Source: Acidobacteriota bacterium (lineage in GTDB: Bacteria; Zixibacteria; MSB-5A5; GN15; FEB-12). Taken from it: 64,000 nt of DNA. Under the pieces are notes generated by a model. The model searched no databases and was not told the DNA's origin. It was given only the letters and a program-made list of their open reading frames with translations. Made by a program: the position numbers and the translations under genes. The DNA lies in the NCBI GenBank assembly GCA_035529075.1, contig DATKXK010000005.1, positions 68,981 through 132,980 on the forward strand, given 5' to 3'. Below, piece after piece: positions 36,432 through 57,940 of the stretch (positions within the stretch are counted from its first letter, which is position 1; every line of letters begins with the position of its first letter).

Positions 36432-36686
36432 TTACTTCAGCAGCACCATCTTCTTCGTCTGGACAAAATCTCCCGCCTCGAGCCGGTAAAGGTAGACGCC
36501 GCTGGCGACATGGCTCGCGTCCCACGCAACGGTGTGAACGCCCGCCTCGAGCCGTCCGTCGACAAGGGTCGCTACCTGCTGCCCGAGCGTGTTGTAGACC
36601 CGTAACCTGACCTCGCTCGCAACGGGAAGGCCGAACGAAACGTTGGTGGTCGGGTTGAACGGGTTGGGGTGGTTCTGTTCCAGCGC
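36432..36686 (-). other. T9SS-type (Por secretion) C-terminal sorting domain of the metalloprotease
   Basis: 84-aa tail ALEQNHPNPFNPTTNVSFGLP...VYNTLGQQVATLVDG...ASGVYLYRLEAGDFVQTKKMVLLK matches the canonical type A CTD pattern. Confidence 0.8.
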
Positions 36687-40840: not shown

Positions 40841-43800
40841 ATGGCAATGAAAATTATTCCGAGCCTGCTGCTGTCGGCCGTTGCCTGGCTTTGCGTAGGC
40901 GACCTGCCAACGGCGCAGGAGTCATCCGACGGCAACCTGAAGGCGGCCGAGGCAGGCCGACTTCTCGTCCGGGCTGACTCGCTCAAGGAAAACCGACAAC
41001 TCGATTCCGCCCTTGTCGTGTATCAGTCGGCCGTTGCACAGGCGAGGGAGGCCGGGGCGGAGAATGACTCGACCGTCGTTCAATGTCTGGACGGTCTGGC
41101 GAGCTGCTATTATAAACTGTCGGAATACGAGAGGTGCGATTCGCTGTATCGCCAAGCCTGCTCGATTCGGGTGGTCGTTTTCGGACCGTCCAGCCTCGAA
41201 GTCGCTCGTTCCCTTTTCGACGTGGGCGAGGTTGAGGCAGTACTGGGGCGGTATGAAGAGTCAGTCTCCCTGTTAAACCAGTCTCTGGAACTTCAGGAAC
41301 TTCACCTGGGCCCGTCCCACATCGAACTCGAACCGTGCCTCCGGGAACTCGGCAACGCGCTTTCGATGCTTGGCCGCCTGCCGGAGGCGGAAACGGCGCT
41401 TAAGCGGGCTATTGCCATCGTGGAACAGACAAGGGGGCCTGACGATGTGGCGGTTGTTTCGAATCTTAACTACCTCGGCAACCTCTACGTCAAGCAGTCT
41501 CGTTTTGTCGAAGCAGAACCACTCTTCAAGCGAGCGATCACGCTGGTGGAGAAACAATTGGGCCGTGACCACCCGAAACTGTCCACGGTCCGTTTTTATC
41601 TCGCCGACCTGTACATGTCGCAGCATCGCGATAATGAAGCGGAGCCGCTGCTCAAACAGGCCCTGGCTGTTCAGGAGAGAACGTACGGGCCGGAGGATGA
41701 CCAGGTGGCGCCGTATCTGGCCAGCCTGGCGGTCGTCTACTGGAGGCAGGGACGGTTTGAGGAAGCGGTGCCGCACATGAAACGTGCCCAGCGAATATTC
41801 GAGAGCGTGTATGGTCCCGACCATCCCGTCGTGGCCAGCGTGCTGAACAACCTCGGTACTATTCTGATCGGTCAGGGCAACCTTGCCGAGGCCGAGCGCA
41901 GCTTCGAACGTGCCTTGGAGATTTGGAGCAAAGTGGCTCACGACGTTGCCCGGCGAATTACGACCCTGCACAATCTTGCGGTCGTGTATTTCATGCAGGA
42001 CAAGTACGATCAGGCGGAAGACCTGTGGGCGCAGGTCCTCGCTCACCGCACGGAACTCCTGGGGGCCGATCATCCGGAGGTCGGCATGGTCCGGCTCAGC
42101 CTGGGACGGCTGTTTGAGGAACAGGGCCGGTACGAGGACGCCGAGCGCGAGTTCGGGCAAGCCCGGACGATCTTTGCCGAGCAATGGGGACCCGGCAGCC
42201 TGGGCGTCTCGGCATGCCTGCACGGTCTGAGCGACGTTTATGCGGCCACCGGCCGGTACGCTCAGGCCGAAGAATTCACGGCCGACGCGTTGTCGCTGGA
42301 GAGTAAGGAACTCCGCACCGGTCACCCCTCGCTCAATCGTGGGTTGCATCTGATGGCGGTGATTCATGGATCCCTGGGAGAGTACGAGTCGAGCCGTGCG
42401 AACATGTGCGAATTGCTTGACGCCAGGCACCGCTTTATCGCCCATGTTTTCTCGTACGCCTCGGAAGAGCAAAAGCTCAGATACGTCGATCAGCAGCCGC
42501 TTGTCGATGAGGTGATGCTTTCGCTGGCTCTCATCGATGGTTCCGAAGAGACCCGATCCGCCGCGCTTGAAATGCTGGTGAAAGGCAAAGGTGTCATCAT
42601 TGATGCCATGTCCGCCGAAAATGCGATCATTTCCTGTAAGCCGGGCAGCGAACTGGGGCAGACGGCAGAGCAGTATTCGTTTCTGTGCAAGATGATATCC
42701 ACGCTGGCCATGTCCGGACGCGAGAGTATGGTGTCGCAGCAGACGGCGGACCGGCTGAAGACTCTGTCTCAGGCCAGGGATTCGATCGAAGCGGAGCTCA
42801 GTTTGAGCTGTCTTGAATTCAAGGACGAACTGGACCGGGGTAATTTCTCGCTGCAGAACGTACTCGAGGCGCTGCCCCCGGGCAGCGTCTACCTGGACTA
42901 TGCGCGATTTCGCCCGGTTGACTTCTCGAAGGTCGGCTCATATCAACAAAAACTGGGATCGTCCCGCTATCTCGCCTTTACGCTCGATCACGACGGCCAT
43001 AGCACCCTGCACGACCTCGGCGATGCGAACCAGATCGACAGCTTGGTCAGGAGTTGCCGCCGGCTGATCTACAATGCAGGGGCCGAGTTGCATTCGCCGC
43101 TGGCGGACGTCGCCGAAGAACGGCTTCGAGAAGTCACCGACCGGCTGTATGAAAGGTTGTTTCTCCCGCTGGTCGAGGAGCTCGGTGGCAGGGAAAGCCT
43201 TTTTGTCTCGACTGACGGCCTGCTTACTCTTCTGCCCTTCGAAATCCTGTCGTGTCCGGACCGGTCGTTTCTGATAGAGAACTACCGAATATGCTATCTT
43301 TCGTCAGGACGGGATATCCTTCGATTCGTGGAAGGTCCGGTGTTGGCCGGTGAGGCCGCTGTTTTTGCCGACCCGGATTTTGATAACGCCGGTGTCTCCG
43401 CCGCCAACGTCGCCGAGGTGACGCAGTTCGGCTCGGATTCGGTGTCGGGCACGCAATGGTATGCCGCGCGCGCAGGCGACTGCCCGGCTGTCGGCTTTGA
43501 CCGTCTGGCCCGAAGCCGCTCCGAGGCGGCGTCGATTGTCGGCATCCTCAGGCAAGCGGGGAAGGTGAGGGTCGGCGAATACTACGGTACCGAGGCTCTG
43601 GAAGATGTCTTGAAATCCATGGCTGCTCCGCCGCGCGTTCTGCATCTGGCGACGCACGGCTTTTTTTGCCCGATGTCGGACACGTCCGAATCTCTCGTTG
43701 CCGGCAACCCGTTGCTTCGGTGCGGCCTGGCCTTCGCCGGAGCCAATAGGGCCGGCTTTCCTGCCGGGGACAACGCTCCGGGGGCGGAAGACGGTATCCT

Positions 43801-44149
43801 GACCGGCCTGGAGGCCGCCGGCCTTGATCTGGTCGGAACGGAACTGGTGACCCTGGCCGCGTGCGAAACGGGCCTGGGCGAACTGGTGGATGGAGAGGGC
43901 GTCTTCGGTCTGCGCCGGGCTTTCCAGCGTGCCGGGGCGCAGACTATCGTGATGAGCCTGTGGAAAGTCCCCGATCAGGAAACAGCCGAATTGATGGACG
44001 GTTTCTACCGACGGTGGTGCGGCGGGGCATCAAAGCTGGATGCGCTCCGCGAGTCAGCTCTTGACGTCCTTAACCGGTCACGGACCGAACGAGGACGCAG
44101 TCATCCGTTGCTCTGGGGCGGATTTATCCTGGCCGGCAACCCGTACTGA
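40841..44149 (+). CDS. Exported TPR-repeat / CHAT-domain (caspase-fold) protease
   Basis: N-terminal signal-like MAMKIIPSLLLSAVAWLCVGDLPTAQE. About 10 TPR_12-type units (LNNLGxxYxxQGRYxEAEPLxxRAL). CHAT His/Cys dyad in LHLATHGFF and LAACETGLG. Confidence 0.9.
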   Translation: MAMKIIPSLLLSAVAWLCVGDLPTAQESSDGNLKAAEAGRLLVRADSLKENRQLDSALVVYQSAVAQAREAGAENDSTVVQCLDGLASCYYKLSEYERCDSLYRQACSIRVVVFGPSSLEVARSLFDVGEVEAVLGRYEESVSLLNQSLELQELHLGPSHIELEPCLRELGNALSMLGRLPEAETALKRAIAIVEQTRGPDDVAVVSNLNYLGNLYVKQSRFVEAEPLFKRAITLVEKQLGRDHPKLSTVRFYLADLYMSQHRDNEAEPLLKQALAVQERTYGPEDDQVAPYLASLAVVYWRQGRFEEAVPHMKRAQRIFESVYGPDHPVVASVLNNLGTILIGQGNLAEAERSFERALEIWSKVAHDVARRITTLHNLAVVYFMQDKYDQAEDLWAQVLAHRTELLGADHPEVGMVRLSLGRLFEEQGRYEDAEREFGQARTIFAEQWGPGSLGVSACLHGLSDVYAATGRYAQAEEFTADALSLESKELRTGHPSLNRGLHLMAVIHGSLGEYESSRANMCELLDARHRFIAHVFSYASEEQKLRYVDQQPLVDEVMLSLALIDGSEETRSAALEMLVKGKGVIIDAMSAENAIISCKPGSELGQTAEQYSFLCKMISTLAMSGRESMVSQQTADRLKTLSQARDSIEAELSLSCLEFKDELDRGNFSLQNVLEALPPGSVYLDYARFRPVDFSKVGSYQQKLGSSRYLAFTLDHDGHSTLHDLGDANQIDSLVRSCRRLIYNAGAELHSPLADVAEERLREVTDRLYERLFLPLVEELGGRESLFVSTDGLLTLLPFEILSCPDRSFLIENYRICYLSSGRDILRFVEGPVLAGEAAVFADPDFDNAGVSAANVAEVTQFGSDSVSGTQWYAARAGDCPAVGFDRLARSRSEAASIVGILRQAGKVRVGEYYGTEALEDVLKSMAAPPRVLHLATHGFFCPMSDTSESLVAGNPLLRCGLAFAGANRAGFPAGDNAPGAEDGILTGLEAAGLDLVGTELVTLAACETGLGELVDGEGVFGLRRAFQRAGAQTIVMSLWKVPDQETAELMDGFYRRWCGGASKLDALRESALDVLNRSRTERGRSHPLLWGGFILAGNPY

Positions 44150-44559: not shown

Positions 44560-46860
44560 CTACGGAATTCTGCTGCCTTTCGCAGCAGGCGGCACAAGTG
44601 ATCGCCACGCCGGAAATTCGTCATGGGCGCTGTTGTTGGTCAACTTCCGCCGGTTAGTGCCGTCCACGTTCATTATGTAGATTTCCCCGTCGCCGTCCTG
44701 CCACGATGCAAATACGATCTGCTTGCCGTCGGCAGACCAATCCGGGCAGTTCTCGCCGGCATAAGTGGTCGACAGTTTCTGCAGGCCGCTGCCGTCGGCA
44801 TTGATGATATAGATCCCCCGGAAACCTGCATGATCGGAACCAAAGACAATACGGGTGCCATCCGGCGACCAGTCCGGTTCGAAGCAGACGATATCCATCA
44901 ACTTATGCTCATCGCTGCCATCGGCATCCATTATGAAGGTGCCTTCATTGTCGTTGATGCGGGAGAAGACAATCTGACTACCGTCTGGTGACCATGCGGG
45001 AAAATCCTCGGAGCTGGAAGGGGTATCGGTCAGACGCTGCAGATTGGAGCCGTCTGCATGAATGACATAAATCTCGCCCTGGCCGTCGCGCCATGATGCG
45101 AACACTATGTGCACGCCATCGGGCGACCACTGAGGCCAGAAATCCATAGCGGTATGGGATGTCAGTTGTTGCACGCTGCTGCCGTCGGCATTCATGACGT
45201 AGATATCGGGGTTCCCGCCTCGGGTCGACACGAAGGCAATCCGTGAACCGTCGGGCGACCAGCTCGGCCCGGCGTCGTAGGCCGGATCGTCCGTCAGACG
45301 GCGTACGTGGCTGCCGTCGATCTTCATGAGGTAGATGTCCCCTGCACCGTCCCGTTCTGACGTGAAGGCAATCGTTGAGTCAACTGCGACCGGGCACGGC
45401 GGCAGCGGCTCATAGGTGATAAACAGATACTTGATCATCCGCGTCAGGTCCGAGATATCGACCACGCCGTCGGGCTCTGCCTCCGGGCCGATGTCGGCCT
45501 CGGCCAGGCAACAGATCGGTTGGCGAGAGATGAACAGGAAATCAATGAGGTTGGTCAGATCGCTGACATCGACTGTCTGATCGCTGTATTCGCACTCGCC
45601 CAGTAGCATGACATTGCCTATCGTGCCCTCACAGCAGCAGGCATCGCCGACATTATCGCTGTCGCCGTCCTCCTGAAGCGGGTTGTATACGAAGGGGCAG
45701 TTGTCGACGTCGGCACACAGACCGTCCCCGTCGACGTCGTTGTACGGATCCAGCGGGCAGTCGTCGCAGTCGTTGCCGATCCCATCACCGTCTGTATCCA
45801 CCTGGGCCGGGTTGTAAAGTACAGAACAGTTGTCAACCGGGCACGTGTTCTCGGCGTGACCGGGATCGCCGTAACCGTCGAGATCACCATCCGTACAGGA
45901 TCCGACCACAAAACCCTCGTTGGCATCGCTGGCCCCGGCTCCCGTCTGATAGGCACCGGCCACTACGAAGATCGTGTCTCCGATGACTGCCGCGTTGGTT
46001 CCGTGGCGCGGCGTGAGCATGGGCGTCAGCGGCTCCCAGGTATCGGTGCCGGGATCATACAACTCTACTTCCTCGTAGATGTCCGGAATCTCCCCGCCAA
46101 ACGTATACAGCTTTCCGCCAAGGGCCGCCGTCGAAAACGCGCTGCGCGGCGTCAGCATGTCTGCCAGTGTGTACCAGGTATCGCTGGCCGGCGAGTATGC
46201 TTCAGTCACCGGGACCAGCTCGAGAGACTCTCCCCAGTAGCCGATTCTCCCGCCCACTACGTAGATCAGGGAATCGATTACCGCTACTCCCGGGTGGTGA
46301 CGGGCCGTAGGCATGCTCGTGCCCGGAGACCAGCTATCCATCTGCGGATCATACACCTCGACCGAAGCCAGATCATCACCGTAGGTGTTGTTGCCGCCGA
46401 ATACGTAGATAAGACCATCGTAGGCCACAGCGCTGTGTTCACCCCGAGCCGTGGCCAGGGGGGCTCGAGGCGCCCAGCTATCGGTCGATGGCTCATAAGC
46501 CCAGACGGTGCTCGTAGCGATCCACGGCAGGCCGGCATTGCTGTAGCCACCGATCGCGTAAAGTACCCCGTCCACCACGGCCGTGGCACAGTGATGGCGG
46601 GCCTCGGGCAGCAGGGCCGCTGTCGACCAGGTATTGGCGGCTGGATCATACACATAGACACTGCCACTCACGACCAGGCTGGGGGTATACCCGCCCACAA
46701 CGTAGATGCGCCCGTCGAGCACGGCCGGCAGAACCTCCTGTCTGGCTTCCGGCAGCTCAGGACGTTCGAACCAGTAACCGGGCCCCTGGCCATAGGCAAA
46801 CCCGGCTAAGACATTCAACGCTATCAGGATGACGAGACAGACACGGGAACGGCGTTTCAT
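44560..46860 (-). CDS. Secreted mosaic protein: 6 Kelch repeats + TSP3-type Ca-binding repeats + dockerin-like pair + TolB-like (PD40) beta-propeller
   Basis: Signal peptide MKRRSRVCLVILIALNVLAGFAYG (ATG at 46860 preferred over 46917). Six units of PxARxxxxxAVxDGxIYVxGG. DTDGDGIGNDCDDCPLDPYNDVDGDGLCADVDNCP. DVSDLTNLIDFLF / DISDLTRMIKYLF. Repeated IAFxSxRDGxxDIYVMNADGSxxxxLT. Confidence 0.85.
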   Translation of the reverse strand: MKRRSRVCLVILIALNVLAGFAYGQGPGYWFERPELPEARQEVLPAVLDGRIYVVGGYTPSLVVSGSVYVYDPAANTWSTAALLPEARHHCATAVVDGVLYAIGGYSNAGLPWIATSTVWAYEPSTDSWAPRAPLATARGEHSAVAYDGLIYVFGGNNTYGDDLASVEVYDPQMDSWSPGTSMPTARHHPGVAVIDSLIYVVGGRIGYWGESLELVPVTEAYSPASDTWYTLADMLTPRSAFSTAALGGKLYTFGGEIPDIYEEVELYDPGTDTWEPLTPMLTPRHGTNAAVIGDTIFVVAGAYQTGAGASDANEGFVVGSCTDGDLDGYGDPGHAENTCPVDNCSVLYNPAQVDTDGDGIGNDCDDCPLDPYNDVDGDGLCADVDNCPFVYNPLQEDGDSDNVGDACCCEGTIGNVMLLGECEYSDQTVDVSDLTNLIDFLFISRQPICCLAEADIGPEAEPDGVVDISDLTRMIKYLFITYEPLPPCPVAVDSTIAFTSERDGAGDIYLMKIDGSHVRRLTDDPAYDAGPSWSPDGSRIAFVSTRGGNPDIYVMNADGSSVQQLTSHTAMDFWPQWSPDGVHIVFASWRDGQGEIYVIHADGSNLQRLTDTPSSSEDFPAWSPDGSQIVFSRINDNEGTFIMDADGSDEHKLMDIVCFEPDWSPDGTRIVFGSDHAGFRGIYIINADGSGLQKLSTTYAGENCPDWSADGKQIVFASWQDGDGEIYIMNVDGTNRRKLTNNSAHDEFPAWRSLVPPAAKGSRIP

Positions 46861-47087
46861 GACAATATCTCTTGAGTTAAAGGTCAAACCAGACGACCTC
46901 GCAAAGGACGACGGCAAAACTGGTATTTAATAGACGAATACCAACCGACATTGTTCAGCTATTCCAGCTGCAGCGTGCCTGTCCTGTAACTGCCGCTGCC
47001 TGCCCTAAAATGCTCCTTTTAGCCTTACTCTCTTACGAGCAGGATGAACTTCCCGGGCCCTTCTCTGCGCCCATCAGTTACTGCACT

Positions 47088-47249: not shown

Positions 47250-47415
47250 GATCGGCACTTTCGGGCCGGATGGTTGCAGAGATGTGCCGTGACAGGCCGG
47301 ACTTCGCCTGAGGACTTTCGGGTTCGCCGGGGGCGCATCAAGTGGAAGACGGCACAGCCGGAGCCGCAAGCAGGCTTTCAAACTGCGGGGTCATCCTTTC
47401 GACAAAGCCGTCCGG
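47088..47415. repeat. Direct repeat copy B (~325 bp): truncated CHAT 3' end + spacer + genuine apbE 3' end
   Basis: See copy A. Identical block structure, shifted by 3100 bp. Confidence 0.92.
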
Positions 47416-48414
47416 AGTTCTCACAACGAGTAACGCCGCCAGACCTTTGCCGAGCGCCAGCGCATAGCCGTCCGCCGGGCCCAGGATATTGATCGCCGTC
47501 GCCATCGCATCGGCGTACCAGCAGGAATCATGGATCACCGTCACCGAGGCCAGGCGGTGCCTTATCGGCTGTCCTGTCCTGGGATCGATGAGGTGTGAAT
47601 AGCGGACGCCGCCTGTCTCGAAGTAGTTTCGATAGTCTCCGGACGTTGCCATGGCGCAATTGACAAGAGACGCGACTTTCTGCACACCCGAATCCCCGTC
47701 GGGAGTCTCTATGCCGATCTGCCACACCTGATCCCTGTCGTTGCGACCCCGCGCTTTCATCTCCCCGCCGATCTCGACGAGATAGTCGGACAGGCCTGCC
47801 GAGTCAAGGTACCGGGCGATTTCGTCAACGCCGTAGCCCTTGGCGATTGCCGCCAGATCACAGTAGACCCCCGCGTTGTCCTTTTTCAAGGCAGGCGGAT
47901 CCAGCCGGACGGCGATCCTGGCGTACCCGGTGCGCGCCATGGCCCGGGTGATTTCTTCGGGTGTCGGTAGCCTGCGATCGGTCGTCGGGGGACCGAATCC
48001 CCAGAGGTTCACCAGCGGGCCAACCGTAATATCAAACGTACCACCCGTTTCCCGACTTACCCCCAGAGACTGTTCGATGATGCGTGCCGTGGCGGCCGAC
48101 ACGAGGAACCAGTCGGTTTTCTTCCGGTAGTTGAACCGCGAAATCTCCGAACTCTTCAGGTAGCAGGACATCTGAGCGTTGACGGCCTGCAACAGGCTGT
48201 CGATGCCCCGCCTGGCCAGTTCGATCTGCTCATGCGCAAGGTCGGCTGCGTGGCTGATTTTGACACTGTATACGGTCCCCATGGTTTCGCCGCGGATGAC
48301 AACCGGTCCGGCAGGGGCCGGGTTGTCCGAGCAGCCGGCAAGAAGCCCGGCGGCAACCAGCCATCCGGTCAGCCGCCGCCGCGCCCGGTCGGGATTCATC
48401 GCTCTGAACTTCAT
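47338..48414 (-). CDS. apbE: FAD:protein FMN transferase (flavin transferase ApbE), lipoprotein
   Basis: Lipobox LLAGC. GTFDITVGPLVNLWGFG, DLAAIAKGYGVD, AMATSGDYRNYF, YSHLIDPRTGQP. Confidence 0.92.
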   Translation of the reverse strand: MKFRAMNPDRARRRLTGWLVAAGLLAGCSDNPAPAGPVVIRGETMGTVYSVKISHAADLAHEQIELARRGIDSLLQAVNAQMSCYLKSSEISRFNYRKKTDWFLVSAATARIIEQSLGVSRETGGTFDITVGPLVNLWGFGPPTTDRRLPTPEEITRAMARTGYARIAVRLDPPALKKDNAGVYCDLAAIAKGYGVDEIARYLDSAGLSDYLVEIGGEMKARGRNDRDQVWQIGIETPDGDSGVQKVASLVNCAMATSGDYRNYFETGGVRYSHLIDPRTGQPIRHRLASVTVIHDSCWYADAMATAINILGPADGYALALGKGLAALLVVRTPDGFVERMTPQFESLLAAPAVPSST

Positions 48415-48753: not shown

Positions 48754-49227
48754 ATGCCGGAGAAGAAGAAAGATCAAGCGGACAGTTGGGAGGGCATGTT
48801 CTGGAAACCGCACAAGTATAATGAGCGGATCAACCTGAAATCCGGTTCGTATCTCCGTACCTTCTGCCCTCGCTGCGACGAAGAACTGACTGAAGGTAAC
48901 GTGATCCGGCTTGAGGTGATTAACCTCAACGATGAATCGGGGTGGATTGAGCTGAGCACGTACCTGAACGTTTTTGAGCGGAAGACCGATATCAAGCTGC
49001 CTGAGGATCAAGAAGTCAAGGATCTCCGTTGCCGTCACTGTCACCGTTCATTGGTCGTGGAGGGCCGGCGCTGTGGAACCTGCAATTCCCACGCGGCCGG
49101 CATTGTGGTCGGCGTCTCCAACACCAAGGTGCCTTTCCTGATTTGCACGCGCATAGGTTGTCACTGGCACGCTATTCTGCCCGATGACGAAGACCAGATA
49201 ATTCTCGATGACAGCCGTGAATGGTAA
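48754..49227 (+). CDS. Cytoplasmic 8-Cys (double zinc-ribbon-like) protein of unknown function, first gene of the Rnf-type operon
   Basis: 157 aa with no signal peptide. Cys pairs CPRC, CRHC, CGTC, CTRIGC. Its stop lies 1 nt before the cytochrome start. Confidence 0.6.
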   Translation: MPEKKKDQADSWEGMFWKPHKYNERINLKSGSYLRTFCPRCDEELTEGNVIRLEVINLNDESGWIELSTYLNVFERKTDIKLPEDQEVKDLRCRHCHRSLVVEGRRCGTCNSHAAGIVVGVSNTKVPFLICTRIGCHWHAILPDDEDQIILDDSREW

Positions 49228-49228
49228 T

Positions 49229-49840
49229 ATGCAGGCGCACAGAAAACCCACTTTCCTGATAATTCTTACCGTCGTGGCCGCCGTTGCGGCCGTGGGCGGC
49301 TACTGGGTGGGAGAGGAATCCTCGGACACCAGCCGATTCTTCCTGAGTAGCTCCGGCGGCGACGTGGTGTTCGAGCACGGGGCGCATACGGAAATGGCCG
49401 CGGGGTGTGAAAGCTGCCACCATGATCTCCTGCTGGCCGATTCACGGCAGCCGTGCAGCACTTGTCACGGCGACGACGTTGCGGCGGAGGATTTCGATCA
49501 TGATGACCTCAAGACCATCTCGGCGCACAGTTGCGAGACATGCCACGAGGTCAACGACCAGGCCGAGGCAGGGTCATGTCGCAGTTGCCACCCGTCGGCT
49601 CAGGACGCGGAACCGCAAACGGTGGCCTGCGGGCAGTGCCACGACGGCTACTCGGCCGATTTGATGACCCACGACGAGATGCAGGAAATCGAGGGGCACG
49701 CGTGCGAAGGGTGCCACGTCATTGAGGCGGTCAGTACCGTGTACCACCGTCAGTGTGAGGGCTGTCACCTTGCCGAAAGCCCCGAGAAGTTTGCCACCGA
49801 AACCGGAGAAAGCCAGTGTCAATCGTGTCACCTGAGGTGA
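49229..49840 (+). CDS. Membrane-anchored/exported octahaem c-type cytochrome
   Basis: N-terminal MQAHRKPTFLIILTVVAAVAAVGGYWV. Eight CxxCH motifs in ~150 aa: CESCH, CSTCH, CETCH, CRSCH, CGQCH, CEGCH, CEGCH, CQSCH. ATG at 49229 is preferred to the track start at 49208, which overlaps the previous gene. Confidence 0.88.
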   Translation: MQAHRKPTFLIILTVVAAVAAVGGYWVGEESSDTSRFFLSSSGGDVVFEHGAHTEMAAGCESCHHDLLLADSRQPCSTCHGDDVAAEDFDHDDLKTISAHSCETCHEVNDQAEAGSCRSCHPSAQDAEPQTVACGQCHDGYSADLMTHDEMQEIEGHACEGCHVIEAVSTVYHRQCEGCHLAESPEKFATETGESQCQSCHLR

Positions 49841-49856: not shown

Positions 49857-51167
49857 TTGCCCATGAATTCCATACGGACACTTTTCAGGACCCTTGGCCA
49901 CATCGGGGATTGCGCCTCACATGAGGAGAAGATTTCCGCAATCGCCGACCCGCCGTACGTCTGCATCCCGCTGGAGTATCCGGGCCAGATCCTGTACAAG
50001 CCCCTGGTGCAGGCGGGTGATACGGTGCGCAGGAACCAGATCATCGGCCGGTCCGGGCAGGGTAATTGTGTCCACGCGTCGGTAAGCGGAACAGTGAAGG
50101 AGATCAGGCCCGTCTGGACTGCGCGAAGCTACAACGTGCCCTCGGTCGTGATTGAGCGAAACGGCGGCGCCCCGCTGTCGGTGGGCGAAGTCTTTGAGCA
50201 GTACGGCGTGCGGTTTGCCTCGGCGTCCCGGATACAGAAAATGAAGGCCCTGGGGGTTGTCTCGCCGTGGACTCTGCCGGGCAAGTTCCACCGTGAAGAG
50301 GAGGTGGAGGAGTTCCCCGAGGTCAGACAGATCATTATCAAGGGAAAAAACGAAGAACCCAGTATTTTCACGTTCGAACTGCTGCTTGAGCAGGAATCTG
50401 AGAAAGTGACTCGGGGGATTCAGCAACTGACCAGCATCGCCCCCAATGCTCTGATCTGGCTGACCGTGCCGAGGCGCCTGGCTGCCTGGGCGCGTGAGAC
50501 TTTCGGCGACTCCGTCAAAGTTGCGCCCCTTGGGGACGGTTACAAGGACCGTCTGGAGCGGCTGCTTGTCCCGCGCCTGACCGGGATCACGATAGCCAAC
50601 ACCGCCCCGTACCGGCAGGAAGGGATTGCCGTCATATCGGTCGAGTACCTCCTGGCCATGGTCGACGCGCTTGAAGGCCGCAGCCCGTTCACGCACAAGC
50701 ACCTGACTGTCGCCGGGCATAACGTCTCCAGACCCGTTACGGTCAAGTTCCCTATAGGCACACCCATCCGAACACTCCTGGAGAGCCAGCAGCTTCACGA
50801 CAAGTCGTTCGCACGCCTGCTGGTCGGGGGGCCGATGAAGGGAATCGCGCAGTTTAGTGACGAAACTCCCCTCACCAAGTCCTGTCACGGTCTTTACGTG
50901 ATATCAGCGGATCAATTGCCGCTGGAGGTGAACCTTACGTGCATAAACTGCGGCCGGTGTACGCGGGCGTGCCCGCTTAACCTGCAGGTGCACCTGATCG
51001 GCCGCTACGTCGAATATAACCTGCTGCTTGAGGCCAGGGGATTTCACCCGGAAGCCTGCAATGAGTGCGGGTTGTGCGCCTATGTCTGTCCGGCTCACAG
51101 GCCGCTGGTACAACTTATCACTATGTGTAATCAGTACGATGAGCACGCCGATGGTCAGAACGTATGA
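49857..51167 (+). CDS. rnfC: RnfC-like subunit retaining two [4Fe-4S] motifs but lacking the Gly-rich NADH/FMN-binding motifs
   Basis: RnfC_N pattern (VCIPLEYPGQILYKPLVQAGDTVRRNQIIG..VHASVSGTVKEI), LLVGGPMKG, CINCGRCTRACP and CNECGLCAYVCP. Where RsxC/RnfC has G(L/V)GGAGFPT and INxAECEPY, this protein has VVSPWTLPGKF and IKGKNEEPS. Confidence 0.82.
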   Translation: MPMNSIRTLFRTLGHIGDCASHEEKISAIADPPYVCIPLEYPGQILYKPLVQAGDTVRRNQIIGRSGQGNCVHASVSGTVKEIRPVWTARSYNVPSVVIERNGGAPLSVGEVFEQYGVRFASASRIQKMKALGVVSPWTLPGKFHREEEVEEFPEVRQIIIKGKNEEPSIFTFELLLEQESEKVTRGIQQLTSIAPNALIWLTVPRRLAAWARETFGDSVKVAPLGDGYKDRLERLLVPRLTGITIANTAPYRQEGIAVISVEYLLAMVDALEGRSPFTHKHLTVAGHNVSRPVTVKFPIGTPIRTLLESQQLHDKSFARLLVGGPMKGIAQFSDETPLTKSCHGLYVISADQLPLEVNLTCINCGRCTRACPLNLQVHLIGRYVEYNLLLEARGFHPEACNECGLCAYVCPAHRPLVQLITMCNQYDEHADGQNV

Positions 51168-52125
51168 GAAACTGAACGTAGCTTCCAGCCCTCACTGGCG
51201 GGATGGAAGCGCCCTGGATTTGACTTACAAGCTGTGGCTGCTGGCCCTGGCGCCGGCCATGATCGTGAGCCTGCTGATGTTCGGTTGGCAGGCGTTACGG
51301 GTTCTCGGCCTGGCCGTGGCCTGTTCCGTATTCCTGGATGCGCTCGTCAACCGGATAAAGCCCTCCAAGGACTTTACGACCAATTGGAGCAGCGTTACGT
51401 TCGGCGTGATCCTCGCCCTGATGATGCCGTATGACGCCGCCTGGTGGCTGATTCTGGTGGGTTGCCTGATCATGATTGTGGTGGGCAAAAAGCTTTTCGG
51501 CGGCGTGGGAGCGTACCCCGTGCACCCGGTCCTGCTCAGTCTGGCCATGCTGCATGTATCCTGGCCGCACCGCTTCGACTTCACCGCTTCCATGGTTTCA
51601 CTGGATCTCGGTGTCAAGATGGTCGAGCCGATGCGTCTCGTCAAAACGCTGGGCGCGGGCGCCGAGGCTGCATATCGCTGGCAGGATCTCCTGCTGGGCA
51701 AACAGGTGGCCGGCATCGGTAGCGGGCTCGTCCTGTACCTGCTTATAGGCGGCCTGCTCCTGATTCTTTTCCGCCAGATTCCGTGGCACATCCCGGTCGC
51801 CTTTATTGTCGGTAACCTGGTGATGGGGGAGGTTCTGCACCTGGCGGATCCGGTTCAGTTCGCCACACCGCTCTTCTACCTTCTGTCCGGCGGCACTGTT
51901 TTCGCCGCTTTTTTCCTGGCGACGGAGTACACGACTTCGCCCGTGAACCCGGTTCCGATGTTGTTATACGGGTTCCTGGGTGGGGCTTTGCTGATAGTAA
52001 TTCGCGCGTTTTCGAACTACACTGACGGCGTGGTGTTTACGATCCTGCTGATCAACCTGTGCAATCCGCTTCTCGATCGCATCACGCCCAGGGTATACGG
52101 CATAGAGGCGGCTCAGCATGCGTGA
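51139..52125 (+). CDS. rnfD: RnfD/NqrB-family membrane subunit (divergent at the FMN-attachment site)
   Basis: VASSPHW near the N-terminus, KKLFGGVGAYPVHPVLLSLAML, YLLSGGTVFAAFFLATE, NYTDGVVFTILLINLCNPLLD. ATG at 51139 is chosen; the track start at 51028 lies deep inside rnfC. Confidence 0.86.
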   Translation: MSTPMVRTYEKLNVASSPHWRDGSALDLTYKLWLLALAPAMIVSLLMFGWQALRVLGLAVACSVFLDALVNRIKPSKDFTTNWSSVTFGVILALMMPYDAAWWLILVGCLIMIVVGKKLFGGVGAYPVHPVLLSLAMLHVSWPHRFDFTASMVSLDLGVKMVEPMRLVKTLGAGAEAAYRWQDLLLGKQVAGIGSGLVLYLLIGGLLLILFRQIPWHIPVAFIVGNLVMGEVLHLADPVQFATPLFYLLSGGTVFAAFFLATEYTTSPVNPVPMLLYGFLGGALLIVIRAFSNYTDGVVFTILLINLCNPLLDRITPRVYGIEAAQHA

Positions 52126-52746: not shown

Positions 52747-53358
52747 ATGAGTTTACGGAAGGTACTGTTTCACGGGTTCTGGAAAGACCTGCCGCCGTTT
52801 CGTCTGGTCCTGGGTCTGTGCCCGTCTCTGGCCGTGACTTCATCGGCCGAGAACGGTCTGGGTATGGGACTGGCGGCGACGTTCGTGCTCGTCTTTTCCA
52901 ATCTGTTTATCTCCGTGCTGCGCAAAATGATCCCGGACAAGGTACGCATTGCCAGTTACATCGTGGTTATCGCCACCCTGACTGTTCTCGTGGAGATGGC
53001 GATGAAGGCGTACTTCTTCCCGCTTTCGCAGCAGTTGGGAATTTACATTCCCCTGATCGTCGTTAACTGCATTATTCTCGGCCGGGCGGAAGCGTACGCC
53101 TCGAAGAACCCGCCTCACCTCTCGATTGTTGATGGCATCAGCATCGGGTTGGGTTTCACGATTTCGCTGACGGTGGTCGGATCGATCCGTGAGATTCTGG
53201 GTGCCGGGCAGTGGTTTGGCACGTACGTTCTCTGGGACAGCTACGAGCCGTTTGAGTTCATGATCAAGGCCCCGGGTGCCTTTATCTGCCTGGGCGTGCT
53301 GTTGGGTCTGATGAACGCATACAGCCGCATGCGCGGTGAAACCTTCATACAGTCGTAG
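52747..53358 (+). CDS. rnfE: RnfE subunit
   Basis: LVLGLCPSLAVT, GLGMGLAATFVL, LGIYIPLIVVNCIILGRAEAYA. Confidence 0.9.
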   Translation: MSLRKVLFHGFWKDLPPFRLVLGLCPSLAVTSSAENGLGMGLAATFVLVFSNLFISVLRKMIPDKVRIASYIVVIATLTVLVEMAMKAYFFPLSQQLGIYIPLIVVNCIILGRAEAYASKNPPHLSIVDGISIGLGFTISLTVVGSIREILGAGQWFGTYVLWDSYEPFEFMIKAPGAFICLGVLLGLMNAYSRMRGETFIQS

Positions 53359-53367
53359 GAGGTACTG

Positions 53368-53943
53368 ATGGACCTGTTGTTGCTCGCGATCAGTGCGATC
53401 TTTGTGAACAATATCCTCCTGGCCCAGTACCTCGGCAACTGCCCCTTCTGCGGCGTCTCCAAGAAGCTGAACACGTCCATCGGGATGGGGGTGGCGGTGA
53501 TCTTTGTGGTGGCGCTGGCCTCGGTGTTCACGTGGCTGGTTTACTACTACGTTTTGAAACCGTACGATATGGAGTTCATCCAAACCCTCGTCTTCATTCT
53601 GATTATCGCGTCGCTCGTTCAGTTTGTGGAGATCTTTCTTAAGAAGCAGAGTAAGGCGCTGTACAACGCGTTGGGGATCTACCTGCCGCTGATCACGACG
53701 AACTGCGCCGTCATGGGCATCGCACTGCTTAATATCAAGCACGAATTCAACTTCATCGAGATGGTGATATTCTCAGTTGCCAGTTCCGCAGGTTTTGCCC
53801 TGGCGATCATACTGTTCGCCGGGCTGCGGGAGCGGCTGCTGGTCTCACCGGTCCCTCGGGCCATGCAGGGGACAGCCGTGGCGCTTCTGACGGCCGGTAT
53901 CATGTCGCTGGCGTTCTTGGGCTTTTACGGTATGGTTCAGTGA
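53368..53943 (+). CDS. rnfA: RnfA subunit
   Basis: NNILLAQYLGNCPFCGVS, LGIYLPLITTNCAVMG, GFALAIILFAGLRERL. Confidence 0.9.
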   Translation: MDLLLLAISAIFVNNILLAQYLGNCPFCGVSKKLNTSIGMGVAVIFVVALASVFTWLVYYYVLKPYDMEFIQTLVFILIIASLVQFVEIFLKKQSKALYNALGIYLPLITTNCAVMGIALLNIKHEFNFIEMVIFSVASSAGFALAIILFAGLRERLLVSPVPRAMQGTAVALLTAGIMSLAFLGFYGMVQ

Positions 53944-53958
53944 GATAGAAAGTAGGGT

Positions 53959-56058
53959 ATGGGCATGCTGGAGTCAGTTGTACTCCTTGCGGGAATTGGA
54001 TTTGTAGCGGCGATTGGTCTGGGCATTGCCGGGATAATCTTCTACGTCAAGGAAGATCCTCGCATAAAGGGCGTTCAGAACATCCTCCCCGGCGCCAACT
54101 GCGGAGGTTGCGGGTTTGCGGGTTGCGCGGCTTGCGCCGAGGCCATTGTCAGGGGGGAAGCTGAGGCAAACGCCTGCGTCGTGGGCCAGACGGAGGTCGC
54201 CACGGAAGTCGCGGATTATCTTGGTCTGTCTCCGGTCGACTCGGAACCGCAGGTGGCCAATCCCGACTGCCAGGGCGGGCTCCGCGCCTCCAGAAAGTAC
54301 GACTACCTGGGCTTCGACGACTGCCGGGCCGCCATGTTGTACTACCACGGGCCGGTGGCGTGTGAGCATGGCTGCATGGGCTTCGGAACCTGCATCAAGG
54401 CGTGCAAGTTCAACGCCATTATGATGGGCGAGAACAACCTGCCACGGTTCAATCCGGAACTGTGCGTGGGCTGCGGCCAGTGCGTGGCGGCCTGCCCCAA
54501 GGGCATCATCTCACTCATCTCCGCCAAGGCCAAGATCCTGCACTGGAATCAGTACACCGAGTGCCTGTCTCCCTGCCGACAGAAGTGCCCGGCTCAGGTC
54601 AACATCCCGAAGTATATCCAGCATATCAGACGCGGTGAATACGCTCAGGCCCTGCTGACAATCAAGGAAAGCAACCCTATGCCGTTAAGCATCGGGCGGG
54701 TCTGCCCCGAACCGTGCGCCCTGGCCTGCCGGCGTACCATCAATGACGAACCCGTGGCTATCAACTACCTCAAGCGGTTTGTCGCCGACTGGGAGATGCA
54801 CTCCGGCCGTCGTCTCCGCATTCCCGTGGCGGCCGGCACGGGCAAGAAGGTGGCCGTGATCGGGGGCGGCCCGGGCGGTCTCTCGGCCGCGTTCTATCTC
54901 AAGCGCCTCGGCCATGAGGTGACAATCTTCGAAAAAAAGCCCCAACTCGGAGGCATGTTGCGTTACGGCATTCCCGAGTACCGGCTGCCCAAGAAGATTC
55001 TCGACTGGGAGATCGAAGGTATCCTCCAGTTGGGAATCACCGCCACTGCCAACGTGGAGTTCGGCAAGGACTTCACGATTGATTTCCTGCGCGCCGAGGG
55101 GTATGACGCCGTTTTCATCGCGGTCGGGGCCTGGAACGAGTCTGAACTGAAGGTCGAGGGCCGCGATCTGAAGGGTGTGGTCGGCGGCATCGGGTTTCTC
55201 GAGCGGTTCCACACCGGTGAAGAGGTTGAGATCGGCAATCACGTGGTTGTGATAGGCGGTGGCAATACGGCTATTGACGCTGCGCGCAGTTCCCTGCGGC
55301 TGGGTGCACAGACCGTCACCATCGTGTATCGCCGGTCGAGGGACGAAATGCCCGCCAATCCTGCCGAGATCATTGCCGCTGAAGAAGAGAACATTCAGTT
55401 CCAGTTCCTGAGTGCTCCCAACCGTGTGCTTGGTGAGGACGGCCGGGTAGCGGGCCTGGAAGTCCTGAAAATGCGCCTGGGCGAGCCCGATCCCAGCGGC
55501 CGGCGAAGGCCCGTCCCGATTGAGGGGTCAGAAGAAGTTGTCCAGTGCGATATGATCGTCGAGGCCGTCGGCCAGTACCCGGATCTGGACTGCCTCAAGC
55601 AAGCGGGATCGCCCAGTCTCCAGGTCACCAAGTGGAACACGATTGACGCGCAGGAAGCGACCCTGCAGACGGACGTTCCCTACATCTTTACCGGCGGTGA
55701 CTGCTTCACCGGTCCGGGTCTCGTGGTGGAGGCCATAGGCGCCGGGCGCTATGCCGCGCGTTCCATCCACTACTACATGATGGATGACGAGATTCGGCCG
55801 ATTCGGGATCGTCAGCGCGAGATCATTCCGGACTCGCTGCACAAGTCAATTATCGGTGTTGCAGCCTTGCCCCGCGTCCATGAACCGATAGTCACACTTG
55901 AAGACCGGCTGGGAACATTCAAGGAGGTGGAGGGGACCATCGACGAGGAGGATGCCCGGTACGAAGCCACGCGGTGCCTGAACTGCGGCATCTTTTGTTA
56001 CGATCACGACCAGGAGGTCGAGCGACTGGCCCAACTGGAGGCGGCCGAAACGACTTAG
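53959..56058 (+). CDS. rnfB: RnfB fused to a GltD-like (glutamate synthase small-subunit-type) NAD(P)H/FAD oxidoreductase module
   Basis: Residues 1-190 are the TM anchor, LPGANCGGCGFAGCAACAEAI (RnfB-type cluster), CEHGCMGFGTCIKAC and CVGCGQCVAACP. Residues ~195-640 carry SPCRQKCPAQVNIPKYI...GRVCPEPCALACRR, KKVAVIGGGPGGLSAAFYL..EKKPQLGGMLRYGIPEYRLPK, VVVIGGGNTAIDAARS and IFTGGDC. 699 aa, against ~190-330 aa for ordinary RnfB. Confidence 0.88.
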   Translation: MGMLESVVLLAGIGFVAAIGLGIAGIIFYVKEDPRIKGVQNILPGANCGGCGFAGCAACAEAIVRGEAEANACVVGQTEVATEVADYLGLSPVDSEPQVANPDCQGGLRASRKYDYLGFDDCRAAMLYYHGPVACEHGCMGFGTCIKACKFNAIMMGENNLPRFNPELCVGCGQCVAACPKGIISLISAKAKILHWNQYTECLSPCRQKCPAQVNIPKYIQHIRRGEYAQALLTIKESNPMPLSIGRVCPEPCALACRRTINDEPVAINYLKRFVADWEMHSGRRLRIPVAAGTGKKVAVIGGGPGGLSAAFYLKRLGHEVTIFEKKPQLGGMLRYGIPEYRLPKKILDWEIEGILQLGITATANVEFGKDFTIDFLRAEGYDAVFIAVGAWNESELKVEGRDLKGVVGGIGFLERFHTGEEVEIGNHVVVIGGGNTAIDAARSSLRLGAQTVTIVYRRSRDEMPANPAEIIAAEEENIQFQFLSAPNRVLGEDGRVAGLEVLKMRLGEPDPSGRRRPVPIEGSEEVVQCDMIVEAVGQYPDLDCLKQAGSPSLQVTKWNTIDAQEATLQTDVPYIFTGGDCFTGPGLVVEAIGAGRYAARSIHYYMMDDEIRPIRDRQREIIPDSLHKSIIGVAALPRVHEPIVTLEDRLGTFKEVEGTIDEEDARYEATRCLNCGIFCYDHDQEVERLAQLEAAETT

Positions 56059-56099
56059 CGGTGCGACCGGCTCCCCGCCTGACCTGATTTCACTGACGG

Positions 56100-56133
56100 C
56101 GGCCGGTCCTTTCGGGCTGGCCGTTTGTGTGTT
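56100..56133 (+). terminator. Intrinsic terminator closing the Rnf-type operon
   Basis: cggccggtcc-tttc-gggctggccg (10-bp stem including 2 G-U pairs) followed by TTTGTGTGTT, 42 nt after the rnfB stop. Confidence 0.6.
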
Positions 56134-56245: not shown

Positions 56246-57940
56246 ATGGATACGAATCTACCCGGGATCATAGTTACGGGCGCGTCCGGTTTCATCGGGC
56301 GGCACTTTCTGGAGGCGGTGGCCGGTAAATTCCGTCTCTTCTGCCTGGCGCGCCGTTCGCAAAAGGAAGCGGGTATTCCCAGGGATGACAACATCCGCTG
56401 GACCCAGGTCGACATCGCCAAATGGGACACTCTCAGAGAGGTCGTGCAATGCGTGAAGACCAACGGGGGTGCGGATTTCGTCCTGCACCTGGCCGGCTAC
56501 TATGACTTCAGCAACGCCGACAACCCGGAATACGAACGGACCAACGTCAACGGCACGCGCAACGTCCTGAAGCTGGCAAAACAGATCGGCACGCGCCGTT
56601 TCATCTTCGCCAGTTCCCTGGCGGCCTGTACGTTTCCGCGTGACGGCGGGGTGGTCAACGAAGAGAGTGCGCCAGACGCCACTTTTCCGTATGCGTCCAG
56701 CAAACGGCTGGGCGAAGAGATGATGCAGGAGTACTCCGAGTGGTTTCCGTGCACGACCGTCCGTTTGGCCGCAATCTACAGCGACTGGTGCGAGTATCCT
56801 CCGGTATACGTGTTTCTCGGTACCTGGCTGTCCGGCCGCTGGAATTCGCGCATCCTCGGCGGCCGGGGAATGTCCGCCGTGACGTATCTTCACATCCAGG
56901 ACCTGATCAGGTTCTTTCTAAAGATAATCGACCAGACCGATCGCTTGCCGCGGATGTGCACCCTGGTGGCAAGCCCGAACGGATTCACGACTCATCACGA
57001 GCTTTTCAAAACGGCCACGCGGTATTTCTACGGCCGGGACATCCGGCCGATTCGCATGCCTAAGGTCCTGGCCACGCCGGGCATGGTCTTGCGCCATGCC
57101 ATAGGGAAGCTCTTCGGCAGGCCGCCGTTCGAGCGCCTGTGGATGGTGGCGTACATTGACAAGAAACTGAACGTCGACGCCTCAGGAACGCACGCCGACC
57201 TCGGCTGGCAGCCGACCGCCCGGCACGGCATTCTCCGGCGCCTGCTGTTCCTGATGGAAAACATGAAGAATCACCCCGACGGCTGGCATTTGCGGAACGA
57301 AGCCGTGCTGCGGCGGGTGACCGAGCGGCCGAATCTCACCATTTACGAACTGCTTATCGAGTCCCGCGAGGCGCTCATTGATGAAATGCTCAAGTTCATC
57401 CTGGCCCCCGCCAACGCCGGGCGGCTCAACCGCTACCAGAGGATGGATAAGGACCTGCTCAAGTGGTACGTCACCCTCGTGTACCAGCTGGTGGCTACGG
57501 TCGTGCGAACCCGCGACCGGACGCTGATGCGCAATTACGCCGAGGTCATAGCGTATCGCCGGTTCGTGGAAGGATTCGAGGTTCGCGAGGTTTGTGACTT
57601 TCTCATGTCTATAGGTGACATGATGCGTGAGGCACTGGAGCCACGGTCCGAGCTCAGGGACATGCCGCAACGGGTGTACGACCACATCACCATGACTTTC
57701 CAATTGGCGGTGGACGAGATCGAGGACTCTTACGAGTTCCTGGCTGCCCAGACACCTGAATACCTGCAGCGGCTCAGGGAAGTGCCGTTACCGACACACA
57801 GCGGCGATCTCGAGCGCATTGTCCATCAACTGGAGGACATCTGCCAGGACATGTTCGAGGACCGGCTGAGCACGGAGGCCCGCAAGCTCCGGGGCGCGCC
57901 CCTCTCCCGCAGTGACACCCCGCATTATCATGATCTGTAG
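56246..57940 (+). CDS. NAD-dependent epimerase/dehydratase (extended SDR) fused to a ~230-aa helical C-terminal domain of unknown function
   Basis: IIVTGASGFIGRHF (GxxGxxG), YASSK (YxxxK). Residues ~330-564 are helical and not SDR-like. Confidence 0.8.
   Translation: MDTNLPGIIVTGASGFIGRHFLEAVAGKFRLFCLARRSQKEAGIPRDDNIRWTQVDIAKWDTLREVVQCVKTNGGADFVLHLAGYYDFSNADNPEYERTNVNGTRNVLKLAKQIGTRRFIFASSLAACTFPRDGGVVNEESAPDATFPYASSKRLGEEMMQEYSEWFPCTTVRLAAIYSDWCEYPPVYVFLGTWLSGRWNSRILGGRGMSAVTYLHIQDLIRFFLKIIDQTDRLPRMCTLVASPNGFTTHHELFKTATRYFYGRDIRPIRMPKVLATPGMVLRHAIGKLFGRPPFERLWMVAYIDKKLNVDASGTHADLGWQPTARHGILRRLLFLMENMKNHPDGWHLRNEAVLRRVTERPNLTIYELLIESREALIDEMLKFILAPANAGRLNRYQRMDKDLLKWYVTLVYQLVATVVRTRDRTLMRNYAEVIAYRRFVEGFEVREVCDFLMSIGDMMREALEPRSELRDMPQRVYDHITMTFQLAVDEIEDSYEFLAAQTPEYLQRLREVPLPTHSGDLERIVHQLEDICQDMFEDRLSTEARKLRGAPLSRSDTPHYHDL

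Follow-up and report, generated by a model that had tools for sequence, protein, structure and literature searches.

The rnf operon analyzed here lies in a 64-kb stretch of contig DATKXK010000005.1 (assembly GCA_035529075.1), which we call the window and in whose numbering all of its coordinates are given. The last gene of the operon, at 53959–56058 on the forward strand, is one uninterrupted open reading frame (ORF) of 699 codons that opens with ATG and contains no internal stop; it encodes the electron-transfer subunit RnfB continued into a GltD-like flavoprotein with sites for flavin adenine dinucleotide (FAD) and NAD(P)H. This single-chain arrangement had been proposed from the sequence alone, and Pfam, NCBIfam, sequence matches to the PDB, and a fold search now agree on it. 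The parts of the protein, numbered by amino acid (aa), are as follows.

53959..54534 (+): RnfB part of the fusion, aa 1–192; transmembrane helix, N-terminal [4Fe-4S] domain, 2x[4Fe-4S] ferredoxin domain
54547..56013 (+): NfnA/StnC-type GltD-like module, aa 197–685; 2x[4Fe-4S], FAD and NAD(P)H sites
55900..55998 (+): circularly permuted segment of the module, aa 648–680; supplies the 'RCLxC' cluster ligands C673 and C676

The Pfam matches are the RnfB-type FeS domain PF04060 at aa 43–74, Fer4 domains at aa 136–185, Fer4_20 at aa 202–282 (85.3 bits), and Pyr_redox_2 at aa 296–596 (113.5 bits). NCBIfam assigns TIGR01944 (rnfB; 86.8 bits, above the cutoff of 68.7) and, over aa 197–685, NF009410, an 'NAD(P)-binding protein' family (522.7 bits, above the cutoff of 516). 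Among solved structures, the RnfB chains 9eri_B (1.8e-50) and 7zc6_B (4e-42) align with aa 2–193, and chains of NfnA, StnC, NfnB, GltD, and DPD with aa ∼190–686. The motifs quoted in the sequence-only reading were all located: NCGGCGFAGC at aa 47–56, VAVIGGGPGGLSAA at aa 298–311, GGMLRYGIPEYRLPK at aa 331–345, and VVVIGGGNTAIDAA at aa 429–442, with the glycine fingerprints of dinucleotide binding reading GGGPGG (aa 302–307) and GGGNTA (aa 433–438). Two details of that reading needed correction. It gave the RnfB part two CxxCxxCxxxCP motifs; the second is present at aa 169–180, but the first reads Cx3Cx5Cx3C (aa 135–149). Its GltD/Pyr_redox_2 assignment stands, but the flavoprotein does not end near aa 640 as suggested; it runs to about aa 685, because the tail at aa 648–680 carries the 'RCLxC' ligands that are N-terminal in ordinary GltD and NfnB. 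An AlphaFold2 model of the fusion places a helix at aa 2–27 and has a mean predicted local distance difference test score (pLDDT) of 74, with values below 50 at all Fe–S-binding stretches (aa 94–142, 180–212, 254–264, and 674–686).

A fusion of this kind could in principle be an artefact of assembly or annotation, in which a sequencing error near 54500–54560 merged adjacent rnfB and gltD-like genes. Nothing beyond that prior possibility speaks for it, and we give it virtually no credence. A search of 5.8 billion proteins (NCBI, JGI, ENA, and Logan assemblies) for homologous fusions, a check the earlier reading had called for, found more than 115 full-length fusions among the 120 matches listed (682–716 aa, 95–100% coverage, 54–80% identity). 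Where the source gives an organism, these are named Zixibacteria, Krumholzibacteria, Gemmatimonadales, Marinimicrobia, Thermoanaerobaculales, Calditrichaceae, Desulforhopalus, and Desulfopila; the best matches, 74–78% identical, are named Zixibacteria. The gene is also carried by the cultured Desulfocarbo indianensis and Salidesulfovibrio brasiliensis, and an RnfB of ∼700 aa has been detected by proteomics, as reported in PMC5109826. Exact copies of the window fusion protein and of its RnfC are absent from a collection of 15 billion proteins. At the junction (aa 186–203, ...SLISAKAKILHWNQYTECL), L194, N197, C202, and L203 are invariant in 60 homologues, and the stretch ...SLIS-x3-KILHWNQYTECL... 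is among the best conserved of the whole fusion in these 60 sequences. Because the fusion recurs in so many full-length proteins from independent assemblies, it is not the product of a frameshift or misassembly, and conservation of both fusion and junction rules out an artefact of joined genes. Since its residues rank among the best conserved, the junction between RnfB and flavoprotein has the appearance of a fixed interface, not of a linker.

Flavin module of the fused RnfB

The sequence-only reading had recognized a glutamate synthase small subunit/NfnB/SudA-type pattern in the module. The pattern is there, but the nearest kin are the non-bifurcating NADPH-input domains of NfnA and StnC and not glutamate synthase itself. 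The top matches are C. saccharolyticus NfnA (9bov_A, 4.7e-134), T. sibiricus NfnA (9n5u_A, 3.2e-129), and S. ovata StnC (8oh5_C, 4.5e-120), with NfnB (4ylf_B, 1.8e-91) and GltD (∼1e-67) weaker, and Foldseek on the AlphaFold2 model ranks NfnA, StnC, and NfnB as the sequence does. The glutamate synthase equivalogs TIGR01316, TIGR01317, and TIGR01318 all scored far under their NCBIfam cutoffs on the fusion, and no gltB was found in the neighborhood examined. The tail EDRLGTFKEVEGTIDEEDARYEATRCLNC (aa 648–676) aligns with the N-terminus of T. maritima NfnB, ESRRRNFEEVALGYTLEEALEEAQRCLQC (residues 14–42), and also with the equivalent C-terminal position in NfnA 9bov_A and StnC 8oh5_C; these alignments make the module a circularly permuted form of the NfnA/StnC type. 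The permutation explains how such a module can be appended behind another domain.

The module has eight Cys residues for two clusters (C202, C206, C210, C249, C253, C257, C673, and C676), and C673, C676, and C680 are invariant in 70 sequences. K272, in a nearly invariant 'LKRF', aligns with StnC K170, the Lys that ligates the FAD-proximal cluster, a position held by Glu in the bifurcating NfnB. R342 aligns with StnC R239, and the position of StnC C114 is Ile in the fusion. The flavin of NfnA and StnC has been described as non-bifurcating, with NADPH reducing the FAD, from which single electrons pass into an Fe–S chain (PMC10482914, PMC11829005). Taken together, the permuted NfnA/StnC identity and the Lys ligand argue for non-bifurcating NADPH input. 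NADPH would be the likelier nucleotide than NADH because a VYRRSRDEMPA motif is common to the fusion and four NADPH-using homologues. The likeness to NfnA and StnC of the Bfu-type NfnABC/Stn enzymes (PDB 9bov, 9n5u, 8oh5) thus extends from the best sequence and fold match to the permutation ('RCLxC' behind the flavin domains), the proximal-cluster Lys, and the YRR motif. Their setting differs, in that NfnA and StnC are soluble proteins of ∼950–1180 aa with an Fdh/NuoG-like domain and NuoE/F-like partners, whereas the window module is appended to a membrane-anchored RnfB and the protein ends at aa 699, without the Fdh/NuoG-like C-terminal domain.

This kinship bears on whether the fused flavin might bifurcate or confurcate as in NfnSL, splitting NADPH electrons between ferredoxin and a high-potential cytochrome route. 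The module shares homology with NfnB, an enzyme with a bifurcating FAD, and a second fusion subfamily adjoins NuoE/NuoF-like genes of the bifurcation type. We nevertheless consider bifurcation improbable. The proximal cluster has the StnC-type Lys (K272) and not the NfnB Glu, 'RCLNC' is C-terminal instead of N-terminal, and the flavin of the nearest kin, NfnA and StnC, is explicitly described as non-bifurcating (PMC11829005, PMC10482914). In addition, no nfnA/NfnS-like partner gene was seen in the 64-kb window, where the next gene encodes an SDR epimerase, nor any NuoE/F homologue at E<1e-8, and no second cofactor path leading from the FAD is evident in the sequence.

The second subfamily consists of membrane-anchored RnfB–GltD-like fusions 35–41% identical to the window protein (loci L021, 7102–12586, L015, L017, L027, and L037), with a partial Pyr_redox_2 match (aa 283–339). 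In Desulfosarcina-like and Desulfobacteraceae metagenome-assembled genomes (MAGs), the gene lies directly 3′ of genes for a NuoE-like protein (2Fe-2S thioredoxin-like) and a NuoF-like protein (Complex1_51K, 162 bits, plus NADH_4Fe-4S) and 5′ of rseC; in L007, L009, L013, and L040 it lies within rnfCDGEA operons. The NuoE/NuoF-linked form would be a membrane-tethered Stn/NfnABC-like module. In a neighbor-joining tree of the flavin module, the two fusion subfamilies stand apart from unfused proteins; the tree has no support values, and a single and a double origin of the fusion are not separable in it.

Operon and altered partner subunits

The fusion gene closes a tightly packed operon in which a gene for a 157-aa Cys-rich protein and an octahaem cytochrome c gene precede rnfC, rnfD, rnfG, rnfE, and rnfA.

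47338..48414 (−): ApbE, FAD:protein FMN (flavin mononucleotide) transferase, divergent from the operon; Pfam ApbE, 288 bits
48754..49227 (+): 157-aa Cys-rich zinc-ribbon-like protein, first operon gene; 20-nucleotide overlap with the cytochrome gene
49208..49840 (+): octahaem c-type cytochrome with an N-terminal hydrophobic anchor/signal; eight CxxCH; Pfam Cytochrom_CIII, 40 bits
49857..51167 (+): RnfC; RnfC_N, 51.8 bits, Fer4 matches, without a Complex1_51K match
51151..52125 (+): RnfD, from the likely ATG start at 51151 (mechanical ORF start 51028); Pfam NQR2_RnfD_RnfE, 258 bits
52118..52717 (+): RnfG; FMN_bind, 65.8 bits; NF045876 RnfG_DVU2794, 173.6 bits, under the 205-bit cutoff
52747..53358 (+): RnfE; Pfam Rnf-Nqr, 218.9 bits; TIGR01948, 239.8 bits, above cutoff
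53368..53943 (+): RnfA; Pfam Rnf-Nqr, 188.4 bits; TIGR01943, 255.9 bits, above cutoff
56098..56125 (+): terminator-like hairpin closing the operon; 12-bp stem with 8 GC pairs and a T-rich tail, 40 nucleotides past the stop codon

The fusion gene stands in rnfCDGEA operons at 13 loci, and in 10 of these an ORF with 4–11 haem motifs lies immediately 5′ of rnfC. The exceptions are L006 (none within 4 kb), L002 (where the contig end cuts the locus), and L009 (multihaem ORFs downstream only, on the other strand). The full eight-gene order, with the 157-aa gene and a cytochrome of eight haems, is found again in a Zixibacteria contig (L081), a Gemmatimonadales MAG (L082), Desulforhopalus sp. IMCC35007 (L083), and a Geopsychrobacteraceae chromosome (L001). 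ApbE, which scores 289.5 bits against NCBIfam NF007774 (under the 498-bit cutoff), adjoins the fusion gene in L002, L006, and L082 as well. RnfA has C25, C28, and C113, and RnfE C25 and C108, as candidate ligands of the membrane [2Fe-2S] cluster. The 157-aa protein matched no Pfam or NCBIfam family above threshold and gave weak sub-threshold double-zinc-ribbon matches; it looks cytoplasmic, and its pattern of seven invariant Cys with one His (CPxC...CxHC...C...C....C) is accompanied by 'IL.DS.EW', conserved at the C-terminus. Its gene holds the same operon position in L001, L082, and L083, and Desulfobacula (L033) has RseC there. The protein could be an unrecognized subunit or assembly factor of this clade of complexes.

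The partner subunits are changed in a consistent manner. RnfC aligns end to end with solved RnfCs, and in this alignment the G(M/L)GGATFPTH loop is replaced by SPWTLPGKFH (aa 136–145), ECEPYLT by NEEPSIF, and KYPQGAEKQL by GYKDRLERLL. Pfam gives it no Complex1_51K match and an SLBB score of 21.7 bits, under the 27-bit cutoff; the same Complex1_51K model scores 192 bits on C. tetanomorphum RnfC, used as a positive control, versus 0–43 bits on 10 fusion-linked RnfCs. The FMN/NADH loops are gone from all 13 aligned fusion-linked RnfCs, which retain GGPM.G and at least eight C-terminal Cys, so that the suspected co-occurrence of the fusion with a degenerate RnfC is borne out in 13/13 operons. Both CxxCxxCxxxCP motifs of the window RnfC are intact (CINCGRCTRACP, aa 362–373; CNECGLCAYVCP, aa 401–412), and three fusion-linked RnfCs show weak NqrA_2nd matches.

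A second change affects RnfD. In A. woodii, FMN is bound covalently to T156 of 'TVTTATPL' (PMC11889175), a position occupied in the window RnfD by E159 of 'VKMVEPM' (nucleotides 51616–51633). Fifteen of 16 RnfDs have E, S, Y, P, or A at the T156 position, a count that covers fusion-linked operons only and holds no operon with a cytochrome and a short RnfB (Desulfovibrio Rnf1, Methanosarcina), so that an association with the fusion and one with the cytochrome are not separable in it. RnfG, in turn, retains the flavinylation motif (DAISGAT, aa 158–164; pattern D-x-x-S-G-A-T). The one RnfD that keeps the Thr ('SETPL') belongs to the fusion-type operon of Desulfocarbo indianensis (L006, 5494–13132). 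Its RnfC is also the least degenerate (Complex1_51K, 43 bits; RnfC_N, 84 bits; SLBB, 38 bits), and within 4 kb of its operon there is no gene for a multihaem cytochrome, versus 10 of the other 12 loci that have one. This co-variation is suggestive, coming from one genome, and L006 may be an evolutionary intermediate between the canonical type (Rnf1) and the type described below as Rnf2.

Beyond the hairpin, a 564-aa protein is encoded at 56246–57940 (+), behind its own promoter-like site; it combines an SDR/epimerase domain (Pfam Epimerase, 101 bits, aa 8–233) with a C-terminal half that has no assignment. Proteins of 548–554 aa with homologous architecture adjoin the operons of L081 (downstream) and L082 (upstream), indicating that the neighborhood is conserved across phyla. 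Upstream of the operon lie genes for a 958-aa protein with a type IX secretion system (T9SS) Por_Secre_tail (36432–39308, −), a 1102-aa TPR-CHAT protein (40841–44149, +), and a 785-aa Kelch/PD40 beta-propeller protein (44560–46917, −). The T9SS tail, taken with the synteny with L081, would fit an FCB-group, Zixibacteria-like host.

Relation to Rnf2 and other Rnf-like complexes

The large-RnfB architecture, of which the sequence-only reading was unaware, has already been published for Desulfobacteraceae. Dörries et al. (2016) described a 'D. toluolica Tol2-type' Rnf with an RnfB of ∼700 aa containing NAD-binding sites, a cytochrome encoded in the cluster, and an RnfC without the NADH-ubiquinone-oxidoreductase and SLBB domains, whose mode of action 'awaits experimental verification' (PMC5109826); as cited there, the type had been described earlier by Wöhlbrand et al. 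(2016, Proteomics 16:973). A Science Advances study of 2025 names it Rnf2, places it in the Desulfobacteraceae core genome as an abundant and constitutively formed complex (PMC11887813), and proposes that ferredoxin oxidation, and perhaps that of NADH too, reduces cytochrome c3, which passes electrons to Qrc (PMC11887813 supplement). The complexome and proteome data for Rnf2 come from Desulfobacteraceae strains only (PMC5109826, PMC11887813). The earlier suggestion that a covalently attached pyridine-nucleotide module changes the substrate on the RnfB side is a reasonable one, and the Rabus group drew the same conclusion for the same architecture in sulfate reducers (PMC5109826, PMC11887813 supplement).

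By gene content and similarity, the window locus is a member of this Rnf2/Tol2 type. It shares the ∼700-aa RnfB (a pyridine-nucleotide oxidoreductase of ∼500 aa joined to an ordinary RnfB of ∼200 aa), the RnfC without a central FMN/NADH domain, the cytochrome c gene in the cluster, and the order rnfCDGEAB. Its fusion protein is 50–51% identical, over the lengths matched, to Desulfobacterales/Desulfobacula proteins (L004, L005, and L033), on which we judged relatedness, the D. toluolica Tol2 sequence itself not being among them. In the tree mentioned above, which has no bootstrap support and does not include L033, the window protein falls in a clade with Desulfobacterales proteins. Every sequence-level feature of Rnf2 is present in the locus, and the cofactor features that define canonical Rnf are missing from it. 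The window differs from the published type in that its host appears to lie outside Desulfobacterota (best matches named Zixibacteria, T9SS-tail proteins nearby), its cytochrome has eight haems and is not a small c3, and it has the 157-aa gene where Desulfobacula has RseC.

Three better-characterized systems help to place the complex. With canonical Rnf (A. woodii, C. tetanomorphum, and A. vinelandii; PDB 9eri, 7zc6, 8ahx), the window complex shares the RnfA, RnfE, RnfG, and RnfD scaffolds, the N-terminal 190 aa of RnfB, the covalent-FMN motif of RnfG, and the Fe–S motifs of RnfC; it differs in the missing FMN/NADH site of RnfC, the missing T156 FMN site of RnfD, the FAD/NAD(P)H module on RnfB, and the added cytochrome c. 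The M. acetivorans Rnf likewise has a co-transcribed multihaem cytochrome (MmcA), with RnfG as its proposed electron donor, and makes no use of NAD(P) at RnfC; it provides a precedent for a cytochrome-c-linked, NAD-independent Rnf (PMC4023990). Its donor, in contrast, is ferredoxin, entering through a poly-ferredoxin RnfB without a fused flavoprotein, and its RnfD reportedly has a candidate flavin motif. The layout also resembles that of Na+-NQR, in which NADH is oxidized by NqrF (transmembrane helix, ferredoxin domain, and FAD/NADH domain) at the position of RnfB and the RnfC homologue NqrA is cofactor-less. The resemblance is one of analogy and not membership. The window module is of the GltD/NfnL type and not homologous to the FNR-type flavin domain of NqrF, the window RnfC has Fe–S motifs, and the presumed acceptor is a cytochrome and not a quinone.

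In the literature searched, we found no paper with a biochemical or structural characterization of any Rnf2-type member. Nor did we find there any description of the fused module as a permuted NfnA/StnC relative with a Lys ligand, the consistent lack of the FMN threonine in RnfD, the conserved eight-gene operon across several non-deltaproteobacterial phyla, or the second fusion subfamily.

Proposed electron route and its implications

We lean, with reserve, toward the reading that the Rnf2-type complex of the window is a reversible Na+/H+-translocating NAD(P)H:cytochrome c oxidoreductase that works through the NfnA/StnC-type module of RnfB. NADPH, or possibly NADH, would donate hydride to the FAD of the module, from which electrons would move one at a time through its two [4Fe-4S] clusters to the ferredoxin domain and then the N-terminal cluster of RnfB. 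They would continue to the [2Fe-2S] center that RnfA/RnfE hold in the membrane and to the FMN bound covalently to RnfG on the periplasmic side, and the conserved A/E core would be the site of ion translocation. The return branch through RnfD and RnfC would be disabled, being vestigial or repurposed, because RnfD lacks the covalent-FMN Thr and RnfC the FMN/NADH site; with that branch disabled, electrons would leave, or enter if the process is reversed, through the co-encoded membrane-anchored octahaem cytochrome c. The retained flavinylation motif of RnfG, the adjacent ApbE, and the cytochrome 5′ of rnfC in 10/13 operons are consistent with this route. Domain content, motif losses, conservation of the operon, and membership in the family are established from the sequences, whereas the path and direction of the electrons, the preferred nucleotide, and the coupling to ions are deduced from them.

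The main alternative is that the complex still depends on ferredoxin, which would dock on the RnfB or RnfC clusters, and that the fused module serves as an on-board ferredoxin:NADP+ oxidoreductase. Electrons would then go partly to NADP+ at the fused FAD and partly into the pump route, making the complex an ion-translocating ferredoxin:NADP+ enzyme or an 'inverted' one running from ferredoxin (RnfC) to NADP+ (RnfB). The two [4Fe-4S] motifs kept in RnfC are the best argument for it, stand-alone NfnB-like proteins without NfnA are simple ferredoxin:NADP+ oxidoreductases (PMC12221290), and in the hypothesis published for Rnf2 the donor is still ferredoxin, with NADH as a possible second one (PMC11887813 supplement). 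On the other side, the canonical link between RnfG and RnfC is the RnfD FMN, whose attachment Thr is gone in 15/16; judging from the A. woodii mechanism, exergonic transfer from ferredoxin at RnfC to NADP+ at RnfB would reverse the pump core; and the tight linkage to the cytochrome is left without explanation. We therefore regard ferredoxin dependence as unlikely, though deserving considerably more weight than bifurcation.

Several observations weigh against the NAD(P)H:cytochrome c route favored here. The clear conservation of the RnfC CxxCxxCxxxCP motifs suggests that RnfC is still in some electron path, and free ferredoxin may dock on RnfB. In RnfD, the riboflavin ligands are changed conservatively only (N123 to H, D249 to E), and in another loop, at aa 233–241 (51847–51873), 'DPVQFATPL' matches the D-x5-A-T-P-L of the canonical flavinylation site, with A-[ST]-P at this place in several relatives. 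Either chance or an FMN attachment site that has moved could account for it, and because of this resemblance the loss of the RnfD flavin is something we infer rather than observe. The Desulfocapsaceae clade has FRFSR in place of YRRSR, and nucleotide preference may vary accordingly among members. The operon cytochrome of D. alaskensis is dispensable for Rnf phenotypes (PMC4215793), in a complex that is of the short-RnfB type according to PMC11887813. Lastly, the AlphaFold2 model, poor at every FeS region, gives no cluster geometry with which to gauge the predicted route. A more sweeping version of the favored route, which we hold only tentatively, is that Rnf2-type complexes reinvent Rnf convergently along Nqr-like lines. 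All of the return branch on the cytoplasmic side (RnfD FMN to RnfC FMN to NAD+) would be dead, leaving a one-pass ion-coupled NADPH:multihaem-cytochrome oxidoreductase that runs in either direction and is widespread in sediment bacteria of many phyla.

Judging by its homologues, the Rnf2 type extends well beyond sulfate reducers; it is not peculiar to them because it occurs in the window and in homologues named Zixibacteria, Krumholzibacteria, Gemmatimonadales, Marinimicrobia, Thermoanaerobaculales, Calditrichaceae, and Fibrobacteraceae. Desulfobacteraceae, which have Rnf2 in their core genome, account for a large part of carbon oxidation in the seabed (PMC11887813). In annotation, Rnf2 could be told from the canonical type by its long RnfB, the missing Nqo1-like loops of RnfC, the missing FMN Thr of RnfD, and a multihaem cytochrome encoded upstream. 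The complex would be familiar at once to anyone specialized in the bioenergetics of sulfate reducers, and these markers sharpen the testable question of what the real substrates of Rnf2 are. If NAD(P)H does pass electrons directly to periplasmic cytochromes with ion translocation, metabolic models that give every rnf operon the label 'ferredoxin:NAD+ oxidoreductase' would be wrong for such organisms.

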